DNA of 64,000 bases from contig CAYNPJ010000001.1 in the NCBI GenBank assembly GCA_964399055.1, positions 582,935 to 646,934 of the forward strand, read 5' to 3'. A program made the translations under genes and the position numbers. The stretch's first letter is position 1; each line of letters begins with the position of its first letter. The notes beneath the pieces were generated by a model. It worked only from the letters and a program-made list of their open reading frames with translations, was not told where the DNA came from and made no database searches. The DNA comes from an uncultured Ignavibacteria bacterium. GTDB lineage: Bacteria; Zixibacteria; MSB-5A5; DSPP01; RBG-1. Below are positions 1 to 63,440 of the stretch, in pieces.

Positions 1-572
1 GAGAGAGAGTCAAGGATATTTCCATTTTAGCGCACGAATTTCTAAAACAACTACAGGAAAAATATCCGGACCGACAGCCAGCCATCAGTGAGTCAGCCTT
101 GGAATTGATTATCCGCTACCACTGGCCCGGCAATGTGCGGGAGCTGAAGAATTTCATCGAGAGCGGGGTGGCCTTGTCGAGAACCGGAAGAATAGAAGTC
201 GGCACAGTTTCGGATTACATAGAGAAGCAGTCGCAGGGCAACCGCAATTTGCCGGTAGTAACCGGCAGAAGCACAACTGAAGCGGAGCATGACCTGATTT
301 TTCAGGCGCTCTCTAGTTTGAAGGCTGAAATCATCTCTTTGAAAAATCTAATCAAAGAAGGGCTGGAGATGACCGTGGGATACCCGGCCAAAAGCGAACA
401 GGCCTCGGAAACAGGTGTTGAAGTTGCGCAAGAGAGCTTAGAAGATTTGGAAAAGGAGCACATCCGAAAAGTTTTGATCCAGGTAGGAAGAAATCGCCGG
501 AAAGCCGCCAAGATTCTAGGAATAGGAGAGAGGACTCTGTACCGCAAGCTGAAGGAATACAGCTTGAGATAA
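1..572 (+). CDS. sigma-54-dependent transcriptional regulator (NtrC/Fis family), C-terminal part; 5' end outside window
   Basis: Frame is open from the window edge. Motifs DISILAHEFL and HWPGNVRELKN are typical of sigma-54 activator AAA+ domains. C-terminal Fis-type HTH: RNRRKAAKILGIGERTLYRKLKEY. Confidence 0.8.
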   Translation, partial: ERVKDISILAHEFLKQLQEKYPDRQPAISESALELIIRYHWPGNVRELKNFIESGVALSRTGRIEVGTVSDYIEKQSQGNRNLPVVTGRSTTEAEHDLIFQALSSLKAEIISLKNLIKEGLEMTVGYPAKSEQASETGVEVAQESLEDLEKEHIRKVLIQVGRNRRKAAKILGIGERTLYRKLKEYSLR

Positions 573-574
573 GG

Positions 575-2197
575 TTGAAAATGGGGAAGCTGATACTGGC
601 AGGGGTGGTTTTGATTGCCGCAACTGGATTCTGTCAGATAATCTCGCCGGAGATTTATCAGACCGAAGAGGATTTGTTAGAAGCTCTGCAATTAGGCGAA
701 ATCACTTTCGACCAGTATTTAGAGCTGCTGGATTTGATGAGGCAGAAAAATTTGTCAGCCGAGAGTGATTCCGAACTGATTACACAGATTCCGGACCTGG
801 ATTATCTTACCGAGGATTCTGTAGATAATGAAACTGAGCAGAAAATCGCCGAGTTCAGACGTACCTCGCCCGCAAAGCAGACTAAAGCTAAGGTAATTCT
901 GCAGCACCGGCAGAATATCTCCGAACCGAGCCAGCCGGAGACCTACTTCAGAATAGAGGCCGGACAGGGGAAAGACTGGAATCTCTATGTGGAAAGCGAG
1001 AATATGGAGAATCAGAATCGAATTAAAAGGAGGGCTTTGGAGGCAGGCAAGCCTCATAACTGGAACTTGGTCCTGGGGAATTTTCAACCGCGTTTCGGCC
1101 TGGGAGTAAATGTGGGTTACCGCACTTACTTAAATTTTTCCTCGCAAAATTCCCTGGAGACGGAAAATACACTTTTATTCCCTTTCTGGACCAGATATAA
1201 TGGAGTGCTGGCCGGTTATCAAAAGAGGAATAATTCCACGGCAATGTTTTATTCGCAGAATAGATTTGGAGATTACAAAGATCAGGTCTGGGGCGGAGCC
1301 GTAAATCTGCGGAGCAAACACTGGTTAATTTCACCAATCTTTTCTTATCAGGAGATTTCTAAAGGAAAAGATAGATTCCTCAGTCGGGCCGGAAGTCTGT
1401 ACGGAAAATTGTTCTGGGAGTCAGGTGAAATTGCAGCAGAGTATGTCTCAACCGATAGAAAAGAAAGCGGGCTGGTGGTGGAAGCGCTTTGGCAAAATAC
1501 CGATAGAATAAACACCTTTTTTTCATTTTGGAGCTACACCCGGGATTTTCTGCATCCCACTTCCGGGGGGAGAGCGCTGCCGGACTACCGCTTGACGGAG
1601 TTAGGGGATTTGGAGTTATCGCACCGCTCCAGGCAGGCCGGGGAGACCGGAGCATATTTTTCAACCGCGGCAAGGCTAAATCCGCGCACTAAATTAGACT
1701 TTGCCTATCAACAGTGGCAGGATGGAAATAGTTATCTGAACAAGAACAAGCTCAGATTGGGTCTGGCACACTGGTTCAAAAAGAACTTCGAGCTGCGCTT
1801 AAAAGAATACTGGGAGGATGATGACTTGAATGCAAGTTCTCCGGATAAATGGACCACGGTTGTAGTTGGAACTTACATTTTTAAAGGAAATACAAAATTA
1901 CAACTCAGGTTGAACTACCGAGTGAGTGATTCAGAATCGGGAAAGATTAATACGACCTGGGATGAGGTGATTTTTTACTTTCCGATTGCGGGAAAACTGT
2001 CCAGCAAGGTCAGACTGCGCTATCGAGATGATGACATTGCAACGGGAAGAAATTCCAGCTGGAGTTTCTACTTGAGTGAAAATTTCTGGCTGGCTGAAAA
2101 CCTGTTGCTTCTGGCGGAATTTGTCTCCAAGGAGTATCAGGATTTGGACAGAGAAGACTTACAGGTTGTAAGAGTGAGGCTGGAGTGGAGTTTATGA
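575..2197 (+). CDS. hypothetical secreted/outer-membrane protein
   Basis: 540-aa ORF with an N-terminal signal-like hydrophobic segment and aromatic-rich alternating strands. No recognisable catalytic motif. Confidence 0.4.
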   Translation: MKMGKLILAGVVLIAATGFCQIISPEIYQTEEDLLEALQLGEITFDQYLELLDLMRQKNLSAESDSELITQIPDLDYLTEDSVDNETEQKIAEFRRTSPAKQTKAKVILQHRQNISEPSQPETYFRIEAGQGKDWNLYVESENMENQNRIKRRALEAGKPHNWNLVLGNFQPRFGLGVNVGYRTYLNFSSQNSLETENTLLFPFWTRYNGVLAGYQKRNNSTAMFYSQNRFGDYKDQVWGGAVNLRSKHWLISPIFSYQEISKGKDRFLSRAGSLYGKLFWESGEIAAEYVSTDRKESGLVVEALWQNTDRINTFFSFWSYTRDFLHPTSGGRALPDYRLTELGDLELSHRSRQAGETGAYFSTAARLNPRTKLDFAYQQWQDGNSYLNKNKLRLGLAHWFKKNFELRLKEYWEDDDLNASSPDKWTTVVVGTYIFKGNTKLQLRLNYRVSDSESGKINTTWDEVIFYFPIAGKLSSKVRLRYRDDDIATGRNSSWSFYLSENFWLAENLLLLAEFVSKEYQDLDREDLQVVRVRLEWSL

Positions 2198-3885
2198 GAT
2201 TGGTGAACTTGTTAATGGCTGTTTTTGTGGCCTTGAGCCCTGCACTTTCACAAGCTCAGGTTGTTATCAATGAAGTATTGGCCAATGAACCGGGGAGTGG
2301 TACTTCTTTAGAGTGGGTGGAATTGTTTAACTCTGATTCGATTTCAGTCAATCTGGCTAACTGGAAATTCGCGGAAGGAGGAGATACAACCGTTTTCTCC
2401 GACCAGATTGTCATGCCGCCCAATGGATATTTGATTTTAGTGCGGAAGTTGGTCTCAATTCCGCCGGATGTAAACAGCTTCGAAGGGAAATGGGGGGATG
2501 GGAGCGGAGTCTGGGGAGATGCGCCATCTGAGAGTTTTCCGGCAATAGAAGCTAAGATGAGTCTAACTAATTCAGCAGGGACGGTTACTCTAATCTCGCC
2601 GATTGACTCTGTTCAGAATTTTAACTGGAATAGGGATGCTGGGGACGGGATTTCATGGGAAAAGATGGACCCTTTGGCCGGGGACGACAGCACTAACTGG
2701 AAGATCTGTGCATTATCTCAGGGCAGTACTCCCGGAAATATTAATTCTGTCACTCCGGCGGAGAATGATTTGACCATAGTAGAATTTTACAGCGAGCCGG
2801 ATAATCCGGAGGAGAATGCGGTCTTCGACCTCAAGCTGGATATTCAAAACCTGGGCCTATCAACTTCTCCGGCCAATAGCCTGACCATCTTCGATGACCT
2901 GAATTTTAACCAGATTATGGAAAGGGAGGAGGAGCTTTCCGCGGGGAGTATCCCTCAATTAGGTGTTACAGAAGTTTTTACCTTCACTGCAGCAGCAATA
3001 CTCACAGGAGGAAATCACCGATTAGTAGCCGGTTTAGATACCGATGACAAAATCTACAACAACCAGAAGTCGCTGGATTTAAGGGTGGGAGAATTTCTGA
3101 CAGACATAATCATCAATGAGATTATGGCTGCGCCGGATTTAAATCAGAATCAACCGGAATGGATGGAGCTGTACAACCGGAGCGAGCAGACGGTTAATTT
3201 GAAAAACCTGCAGTTGGGTGATGATAAAAAGCAGAGTATCATTACCGCAGAGGATATGTTCTTAGAGCCAGGGCGATTTCTTATTGCCACAGAAGACCGG
3301 AATGATTTCTTACATGCCTACCCAAGTTTCACCGGGCAATTAGTACAAATTGAAGGCTGGCAGACTTTAGATAACAGCGGGGATACGGTGATTCTGAAAG
3401 ATTCGCTCGGATTCGTGATGGAAAAAGTTGCTTATCCCTCCCAGAGTCTGAAGGGAGTCTCCTGGGAGAGGATTGATTACGAAAAAAGCTCATCTGAGCC
3501 GGACAACTGGTGGAGGAGCGTGGATTCAAGCGGCTCTACGCCTGGCAAACAGAACTCGGTGCAGGCGACTTTTACGTCCGGCATCGGGGTCAAAATAGAG
3601 CCAAACCCTTTTTCACCGGACGAAGACGGTTTTGACGACCTGACCGAAATCGAGTTCACCATTCCACTCGGAGTTGACCTGACCATGAAAATCTACGACC
3701 GAAGAGGTAGGCTGGTCAGAACTTTATTGGATAACGAGCCAAAGGTCTCCGGGAAAATCAGCTGGGATGGCAAGAATAATGACAGGAACAAGGTCAGAAG
3801 CGGAGTGTATGTTCTGTTCATTGAAGCTAAGGGAGAGGTCAGGGAAGTCAAGAAGGCGGCCATAGCAGTGACCAAGGGGAAATGA
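2185..3885 (+). CDS. lamin-tail-domain (LTD) protein with T9SS-type C-terminal sorting domain
   Basis: Signal peptide. Two LTD-like motifs: VINEVLANEPGSGTSLEWVELFN and IINEIMAAP...EWMELYN. C-terminus NPFSPDEDGFDDLTEIEFTIP...GVYVLFIEAKGEV resembles a Por secretion tail (T9SS CTD). Confidence 0.6.
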   Translation: MEFMRLVNLLMAVFVALSPALSQAQVVINEVLANEPGSGTSLEWVELFNSDSISVNLANWKFAEGGDTTVFSDQIVMPPNGYLILVRKLVSIPPDVNSFEGKWGDGSGVWGDAPSESFPAIEAKMSLTNSAGTVTLISPIDSVQNFNWNRDAGDGISWEKMDPLAGDDSTNWKICALSQGSTPGNINSVTPAENDLTIVEFYSEPDNPEENAVFDLKLDIQNLGLSTSPANSLTIFDDLNFNQIMEREEELSAGSIPQLGVTEVFTFTAAAILTGGNHRLVAGLDTDDKIYNNQKSLDLRVGEFLTDIIINEIMAAPDLNQNQPEWMELYNRSEQTVNLKNLQLGDDKKQSIITAEDMFLEPGRFLIATEDRNDFLHAYPSFTGQLVQIEGWQTLDNSGDTVILKDSLGFVMEKVAYPSQSLKGVSWERIDYEKSSSEPDNWWRSVDSSGSTPGKQNSVQATFTSGIGVKIEPNPFSPDEDGFDDLTEIEFTIPLGVDLTMKIYDRRGRLVRTLLDNEPKVSGKISWDGKNNDRNKVRSGVYVLFIEAKGEVREVKKAAIAVTKGK

Positions 3886-4676
3886 AGAAATTATTGTCAG
3901 TTATGCTAATCAGCAAGTGCTGCTGGGGAGCTTTTGAAATCACCGGAATAGATGCGCGAAGTTCGGCTTTAGGAAATTCGAGCTACGCGCTGTCAAAGGG
4001 CGTAGTGAGCAGTTTTCTGAATCCAGCAGGATTAGCAAAATTAGAAAAACCTGAGTTCTATTTGAGCTACAGTAATCAATTCAGCCTGGCTGAATTCTCG
4101 CAGGAGTGCATAGGGTTTGGCTTCAGCTATCGAAAAATAGGCATGGGTGTAGGATTTGAGAATTTCGGAAAAAGTGATTTTTATCAAGAGCAGAGAGTGA
4201 ATTTTTCAGCCGGGGCGCAAGTTATACCGAAATTAAATTTAGGGGTTGGCACGAGTTACTTAATGTTGAGAGCAGAAGGATACCCGACCCAAGATGCGGC
4301 CACGTTTGCTTTGGGTTTTCAATGGCAGAAGGGGAAATTTGAAATGGGTGGAGTGGTCAAAAACATCAATCAGCCAAAGGTAAGCGGGGATGAGGTCTTG
4401 AGAAATTATAATTTGGGAATACTTTACAAGGCACTGCCAGAGGTTAACTTAATGGTGGGATTATTTTATGACGCTGAGTTTGAGGAGCAGTTGCAGTTGG
4501 GACAGGAGATAAATGTTTCGCAGAACTTAGCCCTGCGGGCCGGATTTCAGACCGAGCCGAATCGCTATTCCTTTGGTGCGGAATTTTCCTGGAGCAGAAT
4601 TGAAATTGATTATGCTTATGTGAATCATCCGGAGTTGGGAGGGAGTCATAACGTAAGCATGAGCCTGAAGCTCTAA
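3882..4676 (+). CDS. putative PorP/SprF-family outer-membrane beta-barrel (T9SS cargo partner)
   Basis: 264 aa with a signal peptide and beta-barrel-like alternating pattern. Immediately downstream of, and coupled with, a T9SS-CTD cargo gene, as is typical for PorP/SprF pairs. Confidence 0.4.
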   Translation: MKKLLSVMLISKCCWGAFEITGIDARSSALGNSSYALSKGVVSSFLNPAGLAKLEKPEFYLSYSNQFSLAEFSQECIGFGFSYRKIGMGVGFENFGKSDFYQEQRVNFSAGAQVIPKLNLGVGTSYLMLRAEGYPTQDAATFALGFQWQKGKFEMGGVVKNINQPKVSGDEVLRNYNLGILYKALPEVNLMVGLFYDAEFEEQLQLGQEINVSQNLALRAGFQTEPNRYSFGAEFSWSRIEIDYAYVNHPELGGSHNVSMSLKL

Positions 4677-5871: not shown

Positions 5872-5889
5872 TCTGATAATTTTTAGCTT

Positions 5890-6446
5890 GTAGACCCAGC
5901 TTGCCCCAAGCTGGGACAGAATAAAATGGTCAGATTAAGAAGATATAATGTGGAAAATTTAGCTTATCTAATAACTACTTCTGCTTTTCTGAATAGACCT
6001 TCGCTTTTGACAAACCAGAGAGCAGAAACAGTAGCGGATTACATCTATCGTGCCCGGCCTGACTTGATTCAATACCTTTTGGCATTTGCCATAATGCCCA
6101 GTCACATGCATATACTTTTTGTTCCCCAACCCGGAGTTACTATCTCAGGGGTTCTTCACTATATTAAAAGAGGCAGTGCCAGAGTAATTCAGGCACAAGA
6201 AAAGACAACCGGCCGGTTGTGGACCAGGAGATTTCACGACCAGGGCATCAGGACTGAGGAGCAGTTGAGAGAGTCGATTGAGTACATTCACAATAATCCG
6301 GTTAAAGCGGGGATGGTAAAGGAGGCGGAGGAGTATTTATGGTCGTCGGCGAATTCGAGGTGGAAGACGGATGTGGATTTGTATTTGGTCCCACGTTGAG
6401 GGTTCGACTCAGGCTCACCCTAAAAGGCAACGTGGGTCTACGAGCT
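5890..6446 (+). mobile_element. RAYT/IS200-like element copy 1 (left hairpin, tnpA, right hairpin)
   Basis: Left end GTAGACCCAGCTTG-CCCC-CAAGCTGGG hairpin (5890-5915). Right hairpin CCCACGTTG...CAACGTGGG-TCTACGAGCT (6390-6446). The GTAGACCCA / TGGGTCTAC termini are inverted repeats. Confidence 0.65.
5926..6399 (+). CDS. tnpA: REP-associated tyrosine transposase (IS200/IS605-like HuH TnpA)
   Basis: 157 aa. HuH motif HMHILF, C-terminal catalytic Tyr region EYIHNNPVKAG, IS200-like size. Identical to the copy at 8458-8931. Confidence 0.75.
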   Translation: MVRLRRYNVENLAYLITTSAFLNRPSLLTNQRAETVADYIYRARPDLIQYLLAFAIMPSHMHILFVPQPGVTISGVLHYIKRGSARVIQAQEKTTGRLWTRRFHDQGIRTEEQLRESIEYIHNNPVKAGMVKEAEEYLWSSANSRWKTDVDLYLVPR

Positions 6447-7349
6447 AATCCGTATTCTTATGTGAGGAATAATCCTTTGAACTACACAGACCCCAGTGGG
6501 ATGGACCCGATAGGTCTTTTCAAAGGTAGTGGTTTTCCTAGAGGAGGAATTGGAAAACCCGGTATACGCAATTTTGCAGGGCCGGAAGGGGGCACAGAAG
6601 GGGGAGGAAAATCTGTACCTTTTGGGAAATTATTCCCGGTGGCCGCAAGCAGGGGTCCTGAGGCTGCTTTTAATTATCTCGTCGGGAAAGGGATGATAAT
6701 ACATGACATGGGACCGCTAATCCTAGGTCCTAATCTGGGACCATCACGGCACGACCCATTTGATCTTTGGATGAAGATGGCCAATCAAGCTGCGGTTATA
6801 AATGATGCTAATAGGCGACAGTTAATGATTGAAGGAAACCTTCATTATTTGATGCAAGATGCTATAGATTACGCTAATAATCATCCCGAAGCTACTGAAG
6901 CAGAGATACAAGATTGGGTCAAGCAAGCAGCTCGAGCTACTGGTATACCTGAGCAAGTTGCTCTATCGGTACTCTACACGGAAAACAGAATAGGTATAGA
7001 TGATATTAAAAAAGGTGAGGATGCTAATAAGGTCAATCTGATGCAGATAGAAGACGGTCCGGGAATGGCAGGAACAGGAGAATATTTCGGTTTAAATCTA
7101 GCAGACGAAAGCGCTGTTCCTTGGCGGACTAATTGGGGCGCCAATATAGTGGCGGGTATGGCTTATTACGCACACCTGTATTATGATTACGCAATTACCC
7201 GTTATGGTTTTGAGCCAGGCTCTAGGCAGGCTTATCAGTCTGCCTATTCTATGTACAATGGTGGCCCAAAAGCTTGGTATCGATTCTTATTTATGATGGA
7301 TAAACGCGACCAGAATTTTCAAAACGAGCTAAACTATTGGGGTTTTTAA
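6339..7349 (+). CDS. orphan RHS C-terminal toxin module (RHS core end plus lysozyme/SLT-like tip), 5' truncated at the transposon boundary
   Basis: Homology begins exactly at the element end (6444) with ANPYSYVRNNPLNYTDPSGM, the conserved end of the RHS repeat-associated core (DPxG autoproteolysis motif). The tip carries SLT/lytic-transglycosylase-like motifs (NLMQIEDGPG, YSMYNGGPKAW). No RHS/YD repeats upstream. Confidence 0.55.
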   Translation: MVVGEFEVEDGCGFVFGPTLRVRLRLTLKGNVGLRANPYSYVRNNPLNYTDPSGMDPIGLFKGSGFPRGGIGKPGIRNFAGPEGGTEGGGKSVPFGKLFPVAASRGPEAAFNYLVGKGMIIHDMGPLILGPNLGPSRHDPFDLWMKMANQAAVINDANRRQLMIEGNLHYLMQDAIDYANNHPEATEAEIQDWVKQAARATGIPEQVALSVLYTENRIGIDDIKKGEDANKVNLMQIEDGPGMAGTGEYFGLNLADESAVPWRTNWGANIVAGMAYYAHLYYDYAITRYGFEPGSRQAYQSAYSMYNGGPKAWYRFLFMMDKRDQNFQNELNYWGF

Positions 7350-7411
7350 TACGCTCACTACCATTTTTGCACTAAGTCACAAACCAAAGAGTAGAAAGGA
7401 GGATAAAGACG

Positions 7412-8140
7412 ATGAGAATCAAATACGTAATCACTTTGTTAACTTTAATCTCTATTTTAACTGGGCAGAGCAATTCGAATAAAGCAGCTAAACCGGAGAG
7501 GGGAGAATTATACACTATCATTGGTCAGCTCTATGGTTATAGAGAAAGCCCAATTATAAAACCGGGAGTAGTTATGTGCTATGATTCAATGGATTGGGAC
7601 ATAAGAGACACCATTAATGCCCCAGGTGATTGGAAGGGAGAGAAATATGAGGTGAGGGAATATAGGTGGAAGGATTCGAGTTTTGTCTTTGAACGCAGAT
7701 ATTACACGAATGAAACCGGCAAGAAGCAGATCCATCGAGAGGATTATGATTATTCAAGAACCAGAAATTTAGAACTACCAGAGGTATTTTTTCAAATTCC
7801 ACAGATGGCCTTCATTGCAGGGATGAGGACGACAAAAGCTTATGCAGAAGGGGACTTCAATTCTGATGGAAGAAAAGACTTAGTAATCGTAATGGGAGAT
7901 ACTACGAGAGCAAAATATCCGAAATTTATAGACTACTATTTAGAGATTTGGGAGCAGAAAAATGATGGTGGATTCTCCAGAAAATTCCGTTACGATTTTA
8001 GCGATATTGATGTTGGAAAAGTAACGATACAAGATGCCACAGGTGATGGGAGACCAGAGGTTATACTTTGGACATTTAGTGGTGGTGCCAGTGGTTGGAC
8101 TGAGTTTGTGGATATTTTTTCAAGAGTAAAGGATAAATAA
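7412..8140 (+). CDS. secreted FG-GAP-like protein, candidate immunity protein for the upstream RHS-CT
   Basis: Signal peptide MRIKYVITLLTLISILTG. FG-GAP-like motifs GDFNSDGRKDLVIV and DATGDGRPEVILW. Sits directly downstream of a periplasm-acting toxin tip. Confidence 0.4.
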   Translation: MRIKYVITLLTLISILTGQSNSNKAAKPERGELYTIIGQLYGYRESPIIKPGVVMCYDSMDWDIRDTINAPGDWKGEKYEVREYRWKDSSFVFERRYYTNETGKKQIHREDYDYSRTRNLELPEVFFQIPQMAFIAGMRTTKAYAEGDFNSDGRKDLVIVMGDTTRAKYPKFIDYYLEIWEQKNDGGFSRKFRYDFSDIDVGKVTIQDATGDGRPEVILWTFSGGASGWTEFVDIFSRVKDK

Positions 8141-8421
8141 GCAGTTTCCTTAAAAATGAGGAGGATACTATCCTAAGCACTGGAGTAGAGAAGTATCGCT
8201 TTTTTGCTTTCTGCGTTGGGATTCTTGTTTACATATCTTTTTTACCAGATTCAGGCCTTGCTCAGATACCCCAGATTCAGGAAAACCAAATTATAAATGA
8301 CCCAGCTATAATCCCTCAAGGGGAATTCATTCTGGATACCACCATTAAGATTCCTCAACTCTCCTTCCGTAACGCCGACCTCCGCGATATCTTCGACGCT
8401 TTAGCCAAAACCTACAAGCTT
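8138..8421 (+). pseudogene. 5' fragment of an STN/secretin-N-domain protein, paralog of 34625-35506, truncated by the RAYT element
   Basis: Translates to ...IPQLSFRNADLRDIFDALAKTYK, near-identical to IPQLSFRNADIRDIFDALAKTYN in the 34625 gene. No ATG. The frame runs in-frame into tnpA copy 2. Confidence 0.5.
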
Positions 8422-8978
8422 GTAGACCCAGCTTGCCCCAAGCTGGGACAGAATAAAATGGTCAGATTAAGAAGATATAATGTGGAAAATTTAGCTTATC
8501 TAATAACTACTTCTGCTTTTCTGAATAGACCTTCGCTTTTGACAAACCAGAGAGCAGAAACAGTAGCGGATTACATCTATCGTGCCCGGCCTGACTTGAT
8601 TCAATACCTTTTGGCATTTGCCATAATGCCCAGTCACATGCATATACTTTTTGTTCCCCAACCCGGAGTTACTATCTCAGGGGTTCTTCACTATATTAAA
8701 AGAGGCAGTGCCAGAGTAATTCAGGCACAAGAAAAGACAACCGGCCGGTTGTGGACCAGGAGATTTCACGACCAGGGCATCAGGACTGAGGAGCAGTTGA
8801 GAGAGTCGATTGAGTACATTCACAATAATCCGGTTAAAGCGGGGATGGTAAAGGAGGCGGAGGAGTATTTATGGTCGTCGGCGAATTCGAGGTGGAAGAC
8901 GGATGTGGATTTGTATTTGGTCCCACGTTGAGGGTTCGACTCAGGCTCACCCTAAAAGGCAACGTGGGTCTACGAGCT
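8422..8978 (+). mobile_element. RAYT/IS200-like element copy 2 (identical to copy 1)
   Basis: Identical left hairpin (8427-8447), tnpA, and right hairpin with the same 29-nt loop insertion; ends in GGGTCTACGAGCT. Confidence 0.65.
8458..8931 (+). CDS. tnpA: REP-associated tyrosine transposase (identical copy 2)
   Basis: Protein is 100% identical to the 5926-6399 product. Confidence 0.75.
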   Translation: MVRLRRYNVENLAYLITTSAFLNRPSLLTNQRAETVADYIYRARPDLIQYLLAFAIMPSHMHILFVPQPGVTISGVLHYIKRGSARVIQAQEKTTGRLWTRRFHDQGIRTEEQLRESIEYIHNNPVKAGMVKEAEEYLWSSANSRWKTDVDLYLVPR

Positions 8979-9149
8979 TACCGGAGTAGGAATGGGGTTA
9001 AGTGCGCCAACATATATAGATTGGATTAATGATAATATTATGCCAATAATTAATGAATATTGTCCAGCATGCGGAGTTTATCCCATGGGTCCTTAGGTCG
9101 TTATTGTTTGTGGATGTCAAGCAGTGAAAAGAGAATCTAAAGGAAAATC

Positions 9150-9494
9150 ATGATACTAGACCTAGCACAAATTGCAATAGGGTTATTTTTCCTGCTAGTT
9201 GTATTTGTTTATCTTAAGAGATATCATTCCTTTCCCCTCAGCCCTCTCTACGCTTTAGGTTGGGGCATATTCATATCCATTGAATTGGGAATATATCTCT
9301 ACTCAAAACGGGTCGACTTCACTAATAGACTATTTATCATTCTTATGTTAGGACTTTATCTATTAGCACTATTCAGCCTATTAAATCACCTTGGAGAGAG
9401 AGATGACCAAGAATGGAAGAGGTTTCTCCATAGCCCAAATTTTTGGGGGTTGACCCTCATCAACTTTGCCATAGCATTAGCATTCGTATTATAA
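9150..9494 (+). CDS. hypothetical small membrane protein
   Basis: 114 aa with three hydrophobic helices, in an AT-rich patch. No homology recognised. Confidence 0.3.
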   Translation: MILDLAQIAIGLFFLLVVFVYLKRYHSFPLSPLYALGWGIFISIELGIYLYSKRVDFTNRLFIILMLGLYLLALFSLLNHLGERDDQEWKRFLHSPNFWGLTLINFAIALAFVL

Positions 9495-9811
9495 TTTTTC
9501 TAAATTTACATAGAATGAATTGCACTTGCGCATACAACCATTAAGAGCAGAACAGTTAAGTGATGTGAACTAACTCCACTTCAAGTAACTTTAGCAAGAC
9601 ATACAAGACAGTATGAACAATCAACAAATAAATCCCACTGCAGTCGTAATCAAGCCCGTCGGATTAATGGTTATTCTTACTATCTGTACATCTCTAGTGA
9701 AGTTTATTCTTGAACCATATCTTGGAATGTACTCATATGGTTACACTTCGTTCGTCTTACAGAATTTGGTGGATAGTGCTGGTGTAGTGAACCCCATTTG
9801 TCAAGACACGT

Positions 9812-9984
9812 TCAAGCTGCTTTTTCTATGCGGTTTTGGGCCTCAAACTCCTCCGGACTTTTGTAACCCAAAGCCGAATGGGGGTAGTGGTGATTGTAAT
9901 CTTCTACCCACCTTTTTAGTTTAGTCTCCACCTCCTCTAAGCTTTTAAATTCATTGACCCAGACTAGTTCCTCCTTGATAGCTT
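9812..9984 (-). pseudogene. C-terminal fragment of an IS3/IS481-family (rve integrase-core) transposase
   Basis: ...WVEDYNHHYPHSALGYKSPEEFE matches the conserved DDE-transposase C-terminal motif (N..RPHS.LGY.TP.EF). The N-terminal part of the ORF is encoded by the REP hairpin, so it is truncated. Confidence 0.5.
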
Positions 9985-10011
9985 GTAGACCCAGGTTGCC
10001 CCCAACCTGGG
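9985..10011 (+). repeat. solo REP-like hairpin of the RAYT family
   Basis: GTAGACCCAGGTTG-CCCC-CAACCTGGG. Same architecture as the RAYT left ends, with a compensatory GC>GG / GC>CC change that preserves the stem. Confidence 0.55.
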
Positions 10012-10281
10012 CATAGTTTCGCACCTTGGCTCGATTTCGCTCACCATCGAATTATGAGGACAGGGTAGGTCTCCATTTTCTCTTTTTATACTTGCACCAA
10101 ATATGAAGACTGATGCACAAAGAGACGGCAGCAGTCTCTCCGCTTAAACCTAACAGCAGTTACGCCCTTTTTGTCATTTATTTATGCACTCCTAACTTAT
10201 AGCCAGATAGAAAGTTAGCAGGCCATTTCACCACCTTATCCGACGCATTGAGTAAACCCTCACTGGCACAGGGTTTGCTCG

Positions 10282-29790: not shown

Positions 29791-29873
29791 ATCGGAAAAT
29801 ACCTCTTCTAAAAGAAAGAGGAACTAAATCCCCTCTCCTATGAGGGGAGGGTTAGGGAGGGGTTAGTTATTTT

Positions 29874-31724: not shown

Positions 31725-31760
31725 TTCTATGAATAGTAGATTAATCTAAATGTAAAAATC

Positions 31761-32292
31761 GTAGACCCAGCTTGTCCCCAAGCTGGGATAAGATAAGATG
31801 GTGAGATTACGACGATATAATGTCGAAAACTTGGCATACTTTGTCACAACTTCTTCGTTTTTGAGCCAGCCCGTTCTCCTGACAAATAAAAGAGCCGACG
31901 CAATCGCGAACCATATTTATGCGGCTAAAGAGGAATTGATTGAGTATCTTTTGGCATTTGCCATTATGCCTAATCATTTGCATTTGTTATTTGTACCGAT
32001 GCCGAACGTAACTATTTCTCAAGTTTTGCATTATATTAAGAAGGGGAGTTCCAGGGTTATACACGAACAGGAAAAAGGCAGCGGGAGGTTGTTGACCAGG
32101 CGATTTCATGACAGAGGGATTAGGAGCCAGGAGCAACTGAGGAAGGCCATTGAGTATATTCATTTTAATCCGGTGAAGGCGGGATTGGTTAAGGAAGCGG
32201 AGGAGTATTTATGGTCGTCAGCGAATTCGAGGTGGAAGACGGATGCGGATTTGTATTTAGTCCCACGTTGAGGCAACGTGGGTCTACGAGCT
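31761..32292 (+). mobile_element. RAYT/IS200-like element copy 3 (diverged)
   Basis: Same GTAGACCCAGCTTG...CAAGCTGGG left hairpin and CCCACGTTG-AG-GCAACGTGGGTCTACGAGCT right hairpin, but without the 29-nt loop insertion. Confidence 0.65.
31798..32271 (+). CDS. tnpA: REP-associated tyrosine transposase (copy 3, about 70% identical to copies 1 and 2)
   Basis: HuH motif HLHLLF and catalytic region EYIHFNPVKAG. Same length as the other copies. Confidence 0.7.
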   Translation: MVRLRRYNVENLAYFVTTSSFLSQPVLLTNKRADAIANHIYAAKEELIEYLLAFAIMPNHLHLLFVPMPNVTISQVLHYIKKGSSRVIHEQEKGSGRLLTRRFHDRGIRSQEQLRKAIEYIHFNPVKAGLVKEAEEYLWSSANSRWKTDADLYLVPR

Positions 32293-34624: not shown

Positions 34625-35506
34625 GTGAGGCAAGTATACATGGAAGGCTCATCTCGCTTCTTAAAATGGCTATTCTTGATGCAGGTGATAATATGTTTAG
34701 TAGCGAGTCTTAAGGCACAGCCACTTTTACTCTCACTTACTCAAGTCGTAGAGGATACTTCTCAATCGCAGGTCGATACTGTCGATTTCAAGCAATCCTT
34801 AGTAAGCCCCGATACGATAATCCCACAGCTCTCTTTCCGTAACGCAGACATTCGTGATATCTTTGATGCTTTGGCTAAAACCTACAATCTCAACCTCTGG
34901 ATAGATGAAAAAGTTCAAGGGAAAACCACTCTCCACTTGGTCAATGTCTCACTCAACAGCGTGTTTGAATTCTTGGCTCAGCAGAATCAATTAGTCTATG
35001 AAAAATCGGACAACATAATCAAGGTATACAAGGCTCCTCCTCCGCCTCCTGAGCCTCTGAAGATTTTCTATTCGCTCAGTTTCCTTTCGGTTGACTTGAA
35101 GGATGCAGACCTGGCTGAAGTTATCAGGACTCTGGTTAAGGAGAGTAAAGAAAACATAGTCATAGAGGCCGGGGTTATAGGCAGAATAAGTGGCACCCTT
35201 GAGTCAATAGAGTTTGAAAAGGGTTTAAAAGCCCTGATGATTTCCAATGGTTATGTGGTCAGAAAGATTGAGGGGATTTACCACATTGACCGGCTGCCCA
35301 CCGAGCAGCAGGCCCCTACTTTCAAAGGGGTTTATTCAGTCAGCTACAAAGATGACAAGCTCAATATAGATATCGGCAATGCCCAACTATCCAACCTTGT
35401 CCGCCAGATAGCCGAGATGGCCAAGCTGGATATTTTCGTATATGGAGACCTGCAAGGGCAGATTTCGGTCTTTCAGCCGGAGATTCCGTGTCTTCGTCAC
35501 TTGTGA
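34625..35506 (+). CDS. STN/secretin-N-domain protein
   Basis: LSFRNADIRDIFDALAKTYNLNLWIDEKVQGKTTLHLVNVSLNSVFEFLAQQNQLVY fits the secretin/TonB short N-terminal (STN) domain. No secretin barrel domain present. Confidence 0.45.
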   Translation: MRQVYMEGSSRFLKWLFLMQVIICLVASLKAQPLLLSLTQVVEDTSQSQVDTVDFKQSLVSPDTIIPQLSFRNADIRDIFDALAKTYNLNLWIDEKVQGKTTLHLVNVSLNSVFEFLAQQNQLVYEKSDNIIKVYKAPPPPPEPLKIFYSLSFLSVDLKDADLAEVIRTLVKESKENIVIEAGVIGRISGTLESIEFEKGLKALMISNGYVVRKIEGIYHIDRLPTEQQAPTFKGVYSVSYKDDKLNIDIGNAQLSNLVRQIAEMAKLDIFVYGDLQGQISVFQPEIPCLRHL

Positions 35507-44467: not shown

Positions 44468-44585
44468 TTCCCTAGCTTGGCCGGATAATAAAAATCTTAA
44501 AATTGCTGCGACAATACATAAAGCCAGCCCTTATTTATAGTTCAACAAGTTCACTATAAGAGGACTGGCCTTCGGTCAGCATCCT

Positions 44586-44634
44586 TCGACTGCGCTCGGT
44601 ATATGCTGAGGCGGTAGGATTCGAACCTACAATC
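44586..44634 (-). repeat. direct repeat of the tRNA-Asn 3' end plus downstream flank (att-like remnant A)
   Basis: TTCGACTGCGCTCGGTATATGCTGAGGCGGTAGGATTCGAACCTACAATC matches the 3' 29 nt and flank of the tRNA at 48457-48528. Confidence 0.55.
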
Positions 44635-46332: not shown

Positions 46333-46477
46333 GGCGGTAGGATTGGCCTGTTCCGCCTTCGGCTCTGTCTTCGACCCTGAGGCTCAGACCCGAAGGGAGG
46401 TCCTCGACTCGAAGAGAGCCAGCCGAAGGCTACGTCGAGGAAAACCTACAATCTTCCGGTTAACAGCCGGCTGCACT
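46329..46477 (-). repeat. tRNA-Asn fragment (3' end through D-arm), interrupted by a roughly 100-nt MITE-like insertion in the T-loop (att-like remnant B)
   Basis: CTGAGGCGGTAGGATT [insert 46345-46444] CCTACAATCTTCCGGTTAACAGCCGGCTGCACT is identical to the tRNA at 48457-48528 over 16 plus 34 nt, but diverges in the acceptor 5' strand. Confidence 0.5.
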
Positions 46478-46624
46478 CCCCTGGTGCCAATTAGAGCGAG
46501 ATCAAAGCCGGCTCTACATTAGCAAGCTCAAAAAAAGCGTTGACATTCCCAATATTCGGCCTAAATTTCAATAGAGGTCGTTTCAGCCTATTTAGATAGT
46601 AAACTAACAGCCAAGGAGGAATAT

Positions 46625-48259: not shown

Positions 48260-48456
48260 TGAGAATTCTTATCTGAAATTTCAAGGTTCAGAGAATAGGT
48301 ACAGAAACGGCAGGATTGGCCTTGTCCGAGCCAGCGGAGGTTGTTCGGGGGAAACTTCTTGTATTAGGTACAGCCATCCCTCCACTCATTTCATTCGCTC
48401 GGGATGAATTTCTCGCTGCGCTCGAAATTCAATGCCTCGACTTCGCTCGGCACAAG

Positions 48457-48528
48457 CTGAGGCGGTAGGATTCGAACCTACAATCTTCCGGTTAACAGCC
48501 GGCTGCACTGCCCTTGTGCTACGCCTCA
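48457..48528 (-). tRNA. tRNA-Asn (anticodon GTT)
   Basis: Cloverleaf folds by hand. Acceptor TGAGGCG/CGCCTCA, U8, D-stem GCAC/GTGC, anticodon loop CTGTTAA, T-arm GTAGG-TTCGAAT-CCTAC. One G-A mismatch at the base of the anticodon stem. No encoded CCA. Confidence 0.6.
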
Positions 48529-63244: not shown

Positions 63245-63440
63245 CCACCCTCTCCTAAGAGGAGAGGGCTAGGGTGAGGTTTAATTAAACCCCACCTTAA
63301 TCCTCCCTTCAGGGTGAACCTTCAGGATGAACCCCTCTTAGGGGAGGAAAATGAAACTGACCCCTCCCTATCCCTCCCCTTAAAGGAGAGGGGATTTGAC
63401 TCTCTCCCCTTTTAGGGGAGAGGTGGAGAGGGGTAAGTAA
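63245..63440. repeat. cluster of GGGGAGAGG-type palindromic (REP-like) units
   Basis: At least four imperfect palindromes: CCCTCTCCTAAGAGGAGAGGG, CCCCTCTTAGGGGAGG, CTCCCCTTAAAGGAGAGGGG, CTCTCCCCTTTTAGGGGAGAG. The same family occurs at 29830, 35704, 35735 and 53968. Confidence 0.45.

Follow-up and report, generated by a model that had tools for sequence, protein, structure and literature searches.

The locus described here raises the question of how the C-terminal tip of an RHS toxin comes to stand without the rest of its gene, directly behind a mobile element, and what such a tip could still be good for. It lies in a 64,000-nucleotide stretch of contig CAYNPJ010000001.1 from an uncultured Ignavibacteria bacterium, which we call the window, and all coordinates are those of the window unless a contig is named. 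A first-pass annotation, made from the letters alone, had read the open reading frame (ORF) at 6339-7349 as an orphan RHS tip with a lysozyme-like effector; we confirmed the observation and found the interpretation essentially right. The ORF is an orphan RHS tip in which only 19 residues of the core are kept, and the locus is probably the remnant of a toxin/immunity module that can no longer be delivered, the immunity gene being the part that is still useful. Such debris is a normal kind of genomic remnant. This example is mildly unusual in that the toxin/immunity family is very rare and in that the remnant is bracketed by two identical units made of REP sequences and a REP-associated tyrosine transposase (RAYT). 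The left-hand part of the locus is built as follows.

5885-6446, forward strand: copy 1 of the RAYT/REP mobile unit, 562 bp, 100% identical to 8417-8978, with not one shared base beyond the ends.

5926-6399, forward strand: RAYT gene, 157 amino acids, with the HUH motif H60-M-H62 and a tyrosine in EYIHNNP.

6339-6446, forward strand: element-derived first 36 codons of the chimeric ORF, overlapping the 3' end of the RAYT gene in a different frame.

6447-6503, forward strand: RHS core end NPYSYVRNNPLNYTDPSGM, 19 residues, among them the DPxG(L/M) cleavage motif (here DPSGM).

The ORF at 6339-7349 on the forward strand is present in the window as annotated, with 336 amino acids, and it is chimeric. 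Its ATG is preceded by a strong Shine-Dalgarno sequence (GGAGGAG-5 nt-ATG) and both come from the element; the rhs-derived part has no initiation signals of its own. A promoter scan gave 11 matches where 7.0 +/- 2.6 are expected, which is at chance level, and it used the sigma-70 consensus, which may not apply to this host. The right end of the element, GGGTCTACGAGCT, finishes at 6446, so the RHS-derived part begins at 6447, where AAT (Asn37) is its first codon. The annotation had let RHS homology start with the first base after the element: the clean junction at the element end stands, and the position that it gave, 6444, is three nucleotides too early.

The identity of the core end, including its DPxG site, was upheld by two comparisons. 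The last 20 positions of the RHS-associated core model TIGR03696 (57-76 of 76) match chimeric residues 36-55 with E=5.9e-5; the score of 23.5 bits stays under the cut-off of 32.5, the complete core being absent and DPSGM present. In a tblastn search, residues 115-289 of P0002, a metagenomic RHS fragment, align to window positions 6444-6974 with E=1e-25, and the aligned stretch reads NPYSYVRNNP...DPSGMDPIG... in that protein. Thr115 of P0002 faces the element-encoded Ala36 (6444-6446) as a mismatch and identity begins with Asn37 at 6447. Judged by these scores, the RHS homology of the core end is far beyond chance. The 114 RHS-shell residues that precede this stretch in P0002 (...YYYGARYYDPKIGRFISIDPIVNYT) have no counterpart by tblastn on either strand of the window, a search for YD motifs on both strands found no RHS/YD repeats, and the window holds no PAAR, shell or other delivery region. 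The annotation was thus correct that there are no upstream RHS repeats.

What the annotation called a transposon is indeed a mobile element, specifically a RAYT gene between inverted REPs with GTAG hairpins; the second, identical copy at 8417-8978 had been overlooked. The RAYT protein passes the equivalog model NF047646 (103.8 bits against a cut-off of 80, E=7e-30) and matches Pfam Y1_Tnp (E=7.7e-11). It does not pass as an IS200 transposase, with 31 bits for the equivalog NF033573, whose cut-off is 55. The left end of the unit reads AGCTTGTAGACCC and the right end ...GGGTCTACGAGCT. Each end carries AGCTNGTAGACCC in inverted orientation and then a hairpin with a 9-bp stem, with the tetranucleotide GTAG at the foot of the palindrome, a signature of REP sequences (PMC3733652). 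The end hairpins fold with z=-4.2 and -3.2. The terminal motif AGCTNGTAGACCC occurs 7 times in the window, where 0.21 occurrences are expected; 6 of them flank three RAYT genes and one is solo. The possibility that AGCTT at the left end is target DNA was rejected, given that the intact secretin gene of a related metagenomic contig, L084, diverges one base before GCTT and that AGCTNGTAGACCC is symmetric at both ends.

In its equivalog match, its HUH motif and tyrosine, and its inverted GTAG hairpins, the unit is like the RAYTs flanked by inverted GTAG REPs that have been described before (Nunvar 2010; Bertels and Rainey 2011, PMC3116915; Di Nocera 2013, PMC3733652). A RAYT gene is as a rule present once and resembles a housekeeping gene, and duplicated ones with >=95% identity are uncommon (PMC5581495). 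Unlike these usual RAYTs, the unit is present as two identical copies and one diverged copy, it cuts genes like an insertion sequence (IS), and there is one solo REP in 64 kb, where numerous dispersed REPs or REPINs would be typical. To judge from its copies and their ends, this RAYT unit behaves as an insertion sequence. It has no close relatives in 185,579 species genomes, where the best matches have ~30-40% identity over most of the protein and <=57% over short segments, and an exact 35-mer of the element is absent from the genome contig collection.

Behind the core end, 281 residues follow DPSGM and make up the tip, in two parts.

6504-6911, forward strand: Gly-rich linker and helical N-terminal part of the putative toxin (residues 56-191), colinear with P0002 and with the rejoined protein of the metagenomic relative described below, at ~35-40% identity.

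6912-7349, forward strand: SLT/GH23 lysozyme-like candidate toxin domain (residues ~192-336 and the stop codon), with Glu215 in LYTEN, NLMQI at 233 and YSMYNGG at 303.

The annotation had quoted two motifs from this tip, LMQIEDGPG and YSMYNGGPKAW, and had taken them as a sign of a peptidoglycan-targeting effector. Both motifs are present, from residues 234 and 303. By itself the window toxin matches nothing in Pfam or PHROGs and passes no curated threshold; its best NCBIfam match is MltC (E=0.097), a tblastn search of plasmids gave no significant match, and the linker and N-terminal part match no Pfam family. As a reference alignment we used the SLT domains of E. coli MltC, EmtA, Slt70, MltD and MltF, compared with the toxin by hhalign. 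The score was 63.1 over 125 columns (96.6% probability, E=6.1e-10), as against at most 16.8 in 30 column shuffles and 13.7 with the query reversed, and the register puts the catalytic Glu, NLMQI/GLMQ and MYNGG/AYNxG all in alignment. A two-sequence toxin profile searched against the PDB matches E. coli MltC (4c5f, E=6.5e-4) with Glu215 on the catalytic Glu; the aligned position is the residue changed to Gln in the MltC variant 4cfo. P0003, the closest toxin homologue, matches the type III secretion system lytic transglycosylase IagB (E=7.6e-6). With Pfam SLT (PF01464) P0003 scores 18.3 bits (E=1.8e-3), below the cut-off of 21.3, and with the Glu35-to-Asp52 stretch of hen lysozyme E is ~0.15.

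The assignment of the toxin tip to a divergent SLT/GH23 lysozyme-like domain is well supported by this profile homology, and with it the annotation's proposal of a putative effector against peptidoglycan. With SLT/GH23 transglycosylases such as MltC, Slt70, EmtA and IagB and with lysozyme-like effectors, the tip can be aligned at the pre-Glu helix, at the Glu itself and at both the (G)LMQ and the AYNxG-type motifs. The tip differs from these domains in having E-N for E-S, N-LMQ for G-LMQ and an insertion ahead of the third motif, in scoring under the Pfam and NCBIfam cut-offs, and in its place on an RHS tip behind a 135-residue Gly-rich, helical segment. The family is also very rare: among ~15 billion proteins the only relatives are P0002, which covers the N-terminal part at 40% identity, and P0003, which covers the C-terminal part at 48%, and homologue searches of 5.8 and 1.8 billion sequences returned 2-5 matches each, too few for a deep alignment.

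The gene that follows the toxin begins 62 bp after its stop codon.

7412-8140, forward strand: candidate periplasmic immunity protein, 242 amino acids, with a signal peptide, FG-GAP-like repeats and a strong Shine-Dalgarno sequence.

The protein matches FG-GAP_3 (PF13517) with 32.2 bits against a cut-off of 26.9 (E=1.6e-7). Its N-terminus, MRIKYVITLLTLISILTG, is signal-peptide-like and has no lipobox Cys. Its only homologue is P0007 (56% identity in the overall alignment, 61% in the best local alignment), which also has a signal-peptide-like N-terminus and whose gene lies 36 bp downstream of the SLT fragment P0003 on contigs L084/L085. The immunity protein is better conserved than the toxin (56% overall and 61% local, versus 40%) and is intact in both genomes. 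The annotation had placed this FG-GAP protein as a periplasmic immunity protein, a reading supported by the predicted signal peptide and by the toxin-then-FG-GAP order in the relative; in position, signal peptide and conserved pairing, the protein fits the role.

There are known inhibitors of this general kind, among them XAC2610, a beta-propeller-type inhibitor of a peptidoglycan hydrolase of the Xanthomonas type IV secretion system (PMC10933484). Like the inhibitors X-Tfi XAC2610, Tsi1 and PliI (PMC10933484), the candidate would be secreted, has FG-GAP-like motifs and is encoded directly after a putative cell-wall toxin. Unlike them, it lacks a lipobox Cys, its match to the XAC2610_fam model NF047539 is below the cut-off of 35 (19.6 bits, E=9.4e-4, for the window protein; 21.3 bits for P0007), and a profile search of the PDB found only the generic FG-GAP motif and no structural relative. 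An addiction role of the toxin-antitoxin type was considered and rejected: the toxin has no signal peptide, and its substrate and the immunity protein are periplasmic.

Downstream of the immunity gene the locus ends as abruptly as it begins.

8170-8417, forward strand: secretin-like (N0/STN) 5' gene fragment, interrupted by copy 2 and without a canonical start codon.

8417-8978, forward strand: copy 2 of the RAYT/REP mobile unit, 562 bp, in direct orientation with respect to copy 1.

The secretin fragment is colinear with the STN gene of L084. Where L084 continues from ACCTACAA into TCTCAACC (that is, ACCTACAA and then TCTCAACCTCTGG...), the window passes from ACCTACAA into GCTTGTAGACCC. Copy 2 thus cuts the secretin-like gene, so that two identical units bracket a cassette at 6447-8416, and both cassette junctions are clean element ends (6446/6447 on the left, 8416/8417 on the right). 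On the left flank of copy 1 the stop codon of a dGTPase-like HD gene is 13 bp away, and on the right flank of copy 2 there is unrelated sequence and IS debris. At this locus downstream of the dGTPase-like gene, the outer flanks hold neither the 5' part of the rhs gene nor the 3' part of the secretin gene. Given that both missing partners are absent from the outer flanks, the cassette would have been relocated after the two element-end junctions had formed.

For an independent check of this layout we used short-read Logan contigs from two other runs, which match the window at 100%. L086 comes from the dGTPase side and ends 30 bp into copy 1. L083 corresponds to window positions 6637-8446 and carries toxin, immunity gene, secretin fragment and the start of the element in that order, and L082 (SRR10095373) corresponds to 8049-9102, taking in copy 2 and the sequence on either side of it. 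L083 begins at 6637, within the Gly-rich linker and not at an element end, which may reflect low coverage or an upstream population variant. Look-ups of exact products (the chimeric ORF, the partial predicted at a contig edge and three right-flank ORFs) gave no match.

A paralogue of the secretin fragment lies elsewhere in the window, at 34625-35506, and matches PilQ TIGR02515 (E=5e-22) and Pfam N0/STN. This ORF of 293 amino acids lacks a secretin C-domain, genes on the other strand come next, and it may be truncated as well. Its DNA shares 84% identity with the L084 STN gene, more than the 68% between the two immunity genes.

A metagenomic relative of the module comes from JGI sample 3300025310 (contigs L087 and L084), and L001 and L084 look like the two halves of a single locus. 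L087 breaks off within the toxin, at an orfA of IS3 type, and is 100% identical to L001 where the two overlap; at the start of L084 stands the end of an IS3-type orfB, and then comes the remainder of the toxin. When P0002 and P0003 are rejoined across the IS3 insertion, which has a TAT duplication, they restore ...ALIMYKEN..., and the rejoined protein is colinear with chimeric residues 37-334 (40% identity, E=2e-65). The toxin-immunity-secretin order is kept in L084/L085 and is ancestral. The relative's locus has taken an IS3-type insertion in the toxin, an rve-type (IS481-like) insertion in the 5' part of the secretin gene and an IS110-type insertion further on; the rve-type element splits the secretin-like gene and the IS110-type one cuts it after that.

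L001 10870-10988; L084 1-128, 1520-2494 and 2820-3403: IS-related stretches of the relative.

The relative's module is an orphan too. Its RHS homology begins abruptly ~125 residues before the cleavage motif, and the orphan end adjoins divergent M1 peptidase genes, with no RAYT there. The immunity gene is the part that stays intact. As the relative is already an orphan without a RAYT, orphaning may have preceded the RAYT junction, and the end of the element may have done no more than shorten a tip that was orphaned before. The annotation had the tip created at the transposon boundary. Truncation exactly at the element end is correct, and "created" is too strong.

The same core end also precedes other tips. 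A 23-nt stretch of it, TATTCTTATGTGAGGAATAATCC, is identical in the metagenome contigs L087, L088 and L089. In L089 it precedes a Peptidase_M15_4/VanY-like tip (183-1010, reverse strand), apparently another orphan, and in L088 a Gly-rich tip (22-633, forward strand) to which no family was assigned and which is followed by a small membrane protein. One core end with differing tips is, on these few contigs, the usual polymorphic-toxin pattern, and given the Peptidase_M15_4 tip in L089 this RHS lineage carries cell-wall toxins.

Based on these comparisons, the history of the locus may be told as follows. The ancestral gene would have encoded an RHS shell enclosing a C-terminal SLT/GH23-like glycosidase that acts on the periplasmic peptidoglycan of a target cell, and the next gene a secreted FG-GAP protein that blocks the toxin in the producer's own periplasm. 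In the window the reading frame now breaks off 19 residues ahead of the DPxG(L/M) self-cleavage site, exactly where a RAYT/REP unit has its right end, and two clean element-end junctions would have arisen in the ancestral rhs-immunity-secretin locus. The cassette would have moved afterwards, either as a one-copy circle recombining into a resident copy or as a composite via the outer ends of both units. Translation of the chimeric ORF may start at the ATG that the element brings. With no shell, no N-terminal delivery region and no aspartyl-protease portion of the core left, however, the toxin presumably cannot be delivered, and since the element provides a start codon and a ribosome-binding site without any signal peptide, the product would stay in the cytoplasm, away from its substrate. 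The immunity gene, with its own ribosome-binding site and signal peptide, is most likely still selected, as protection against relatives that fire the toxin.

Orphan rhs-CT/rhsI modules are without initiation and export signals and are deployed by recombination with the main rhs gene (PMC3967940). The window module is like those of the Enterobacteriaceae (Poole et al. 2011, PMC3150448; Koskiniemi et al. 2014, PMC3967940) in that a piece of core up to DPxGL is followed by a toxin and a linked immunity gene, with no shell and no export signals. It differs in that only 19 core residues remain, in that a RAYT unit and a dGTPase-like gene lie upstream where the main rhs gene would be, and in having a RAYT/REP unit as its boundary, from which its ATG and ribosome-binding site come. 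The host also differs from the enterobacterial ones in bearing a type IX secretion system (T9SS), with PorP/SprF and CHU_C genes upstream. Current ideas are not overturned by this locus, orphan Rhs-CT/immunity modules being already known. What it adds to the RHS repertoire is a rare, very divergent lysozyme-like toxin family with a matching FG-GAP immunity candidate, from a little-studied, T9SS-bearing lineage, probably of the FCB group. This locus and the metagenomic relatives together show that such modules persist as orphans riddled with IS elements, the immunity gene outliving the weapon, and the identical RAYT/REP brackets are a small concrete case of a RAYT acting like an insertion sequence.

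Several results weigh against reading the locus as an undeliverable remnant, and some of them lead to other explanations. The single-sequence and two-row-alignment AlphaFold2 models of the toxin are helical and of low confidence (pLDDT 40.4 and 45.4). The XAC2610_fam match is limited to model positions 4-32, that is, one FG-GAP motif of ~30 residues, and the suggested immunity role draws only on where the gene lies, on its signal peptide and on the pairing kept in the relative. Over 300 codons the toxin ORF is fully intact, and it has gained a good ATG with a ribosome-binding site, as expected if it were still used. There is no full-length rhs gene in the window, and with a source contig of 1.43 Mb a recombining rhs partner elsewhere is possible. 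An intact ORF would suit a module held in reserve, to be swapped onto a full-length rhs gene by recombination at the core end as with the orphan Rhs toxins of Salmonella, a mechanism that has precedent (PMC3967940); the highly conserved core-end DNA, with its 23-mer identical in three contigs that carry different tips, points the same way. Only 57 nt of core are left here, however, compared with the 522 bp at 95% identity that are used in Salmonella (PMC3967940), no main rhs gene lies within 64 kb, and the toxin family is seen only three times among the ~15 billion proteins, each time as broken fragments. We think it unlikely that the cassette serves as such a reserve. The junction at 6446/6447 is spanned by no independent contig among those retrieved and depends on the source assembly plus elimination. 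The assembly could thus have mis-joined the 562-bp repeat, so that the tip in fact follows another copy inside an intact rhs gene, or so that the cassette and one copy form a free circle of 2,532 bp, and short-read contigs do break 30 bp into the element. Against this, L082 runs from the secretin fragment through copy 2 into the right flank, so that a layout with the circle only is excluded; a tip behind another copy would still begin at an element end; and the source contig is long, as given above. We regard such an artefact as highly improbable.

Other explanations give the RAYT a larger part than the remnant reading does. It might be an active gene-cutting element, two copies of which captured the toxin/immunity cassette and moved it, either in the form of a composite single-strand transposon or because the RAYT catalyses the joining of REP ends; we think this rather doubtful, although if true it would make REP/RAYT systems a route for creating and spreading orphan immunity genes. 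In a more specific form, the two RAYT/REP units and the cassette would together be a composite transposon, mobilised as a whole by the RAYT at its outermost ends (left in copy 1, right in copy 2) and spreading the immunity gene. The copies are direct and 100% identical with clean ends, duplicated RAYTs are uncommon (PMC5581495), and the absence of the cassette's missing partners from both outer flanks means that the cassette did move. All of this is as a composite would have it, but neither a second composite copy nor an empty site was found, the 185,579 species genomes hold no close relative of the RAYT, and a circle that recombines homologously into a resident copy gives the same structure without any new activity. 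A composite of this kind seems to us very doubtful. The remnant reading remains the one that we favor for this locus.

Further traces of the RAYT/REP family and of other mobile elements are found in the window. A third, diverged RAYT/REP unit lies at ~31756-32292 and has 65-74% identity to copies 1 and 2; its last ~110 nt ahead of the right hairpin are almost identical to those of copies 1 and 2, and its right loop is 26 nt shorter. The outward-reading ATG with its Shine-Dalgarno sequence is kept in all three of the RAYT units (3/3), and the start in copy 2, which is the same as in copy 1, opens a 52-amino-acid ORF at 8871-9029. The region from 8979 to 10280, between the dGTPase-like gene and holA, appears to be a graveyard of mobile-element debris. 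It includes the C-terminal remnant of an IS3-type integrase (rve_3 at 9815-10024, E=1.7e-11) at 9812-10024 on the reverse strand, which is cut by the solo REP.

9980-10015, forward strand: solo REP-like left-end motif AGCTTGTAGACCCAGGTTGcccccAACCTGGG, inside the IS3-type integrase remnant.

The stem of this solo REP has one change per side with respect to copies 1-3, with pairing preserved.

Upstream of the locus, at 2185-4676 and also on L086, are the markers of type IX secretion, a CHU_C/LTD protein and a PorP/SprF-like protein, and the presence of these markers suggests a host from the FCB group. RHS delivery routes are poorly known in this group.

Two other sets of repeats were noted. A tRNA-Asn gene is located at 48456-48528 on the reverse strand, with repeat stretches listed at 44581-44634, 46443-46487 and 48432-48528; the 3' part of the tRNA gene recurs in two partial copies at a distance of 2-4 kb, interleaved among genes that encode SBBP-type beta-propeller repeat proteins. 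Partial copies arranged in this way are typical of repeated integration at a tRNA gene. Finally, a pair of 43-nt inverted repeats at 29826-29868 and 63355-63397 is 33 kb apart, 91% complementary and rich in GGGAGGG, and may be another dispersed repeat family.

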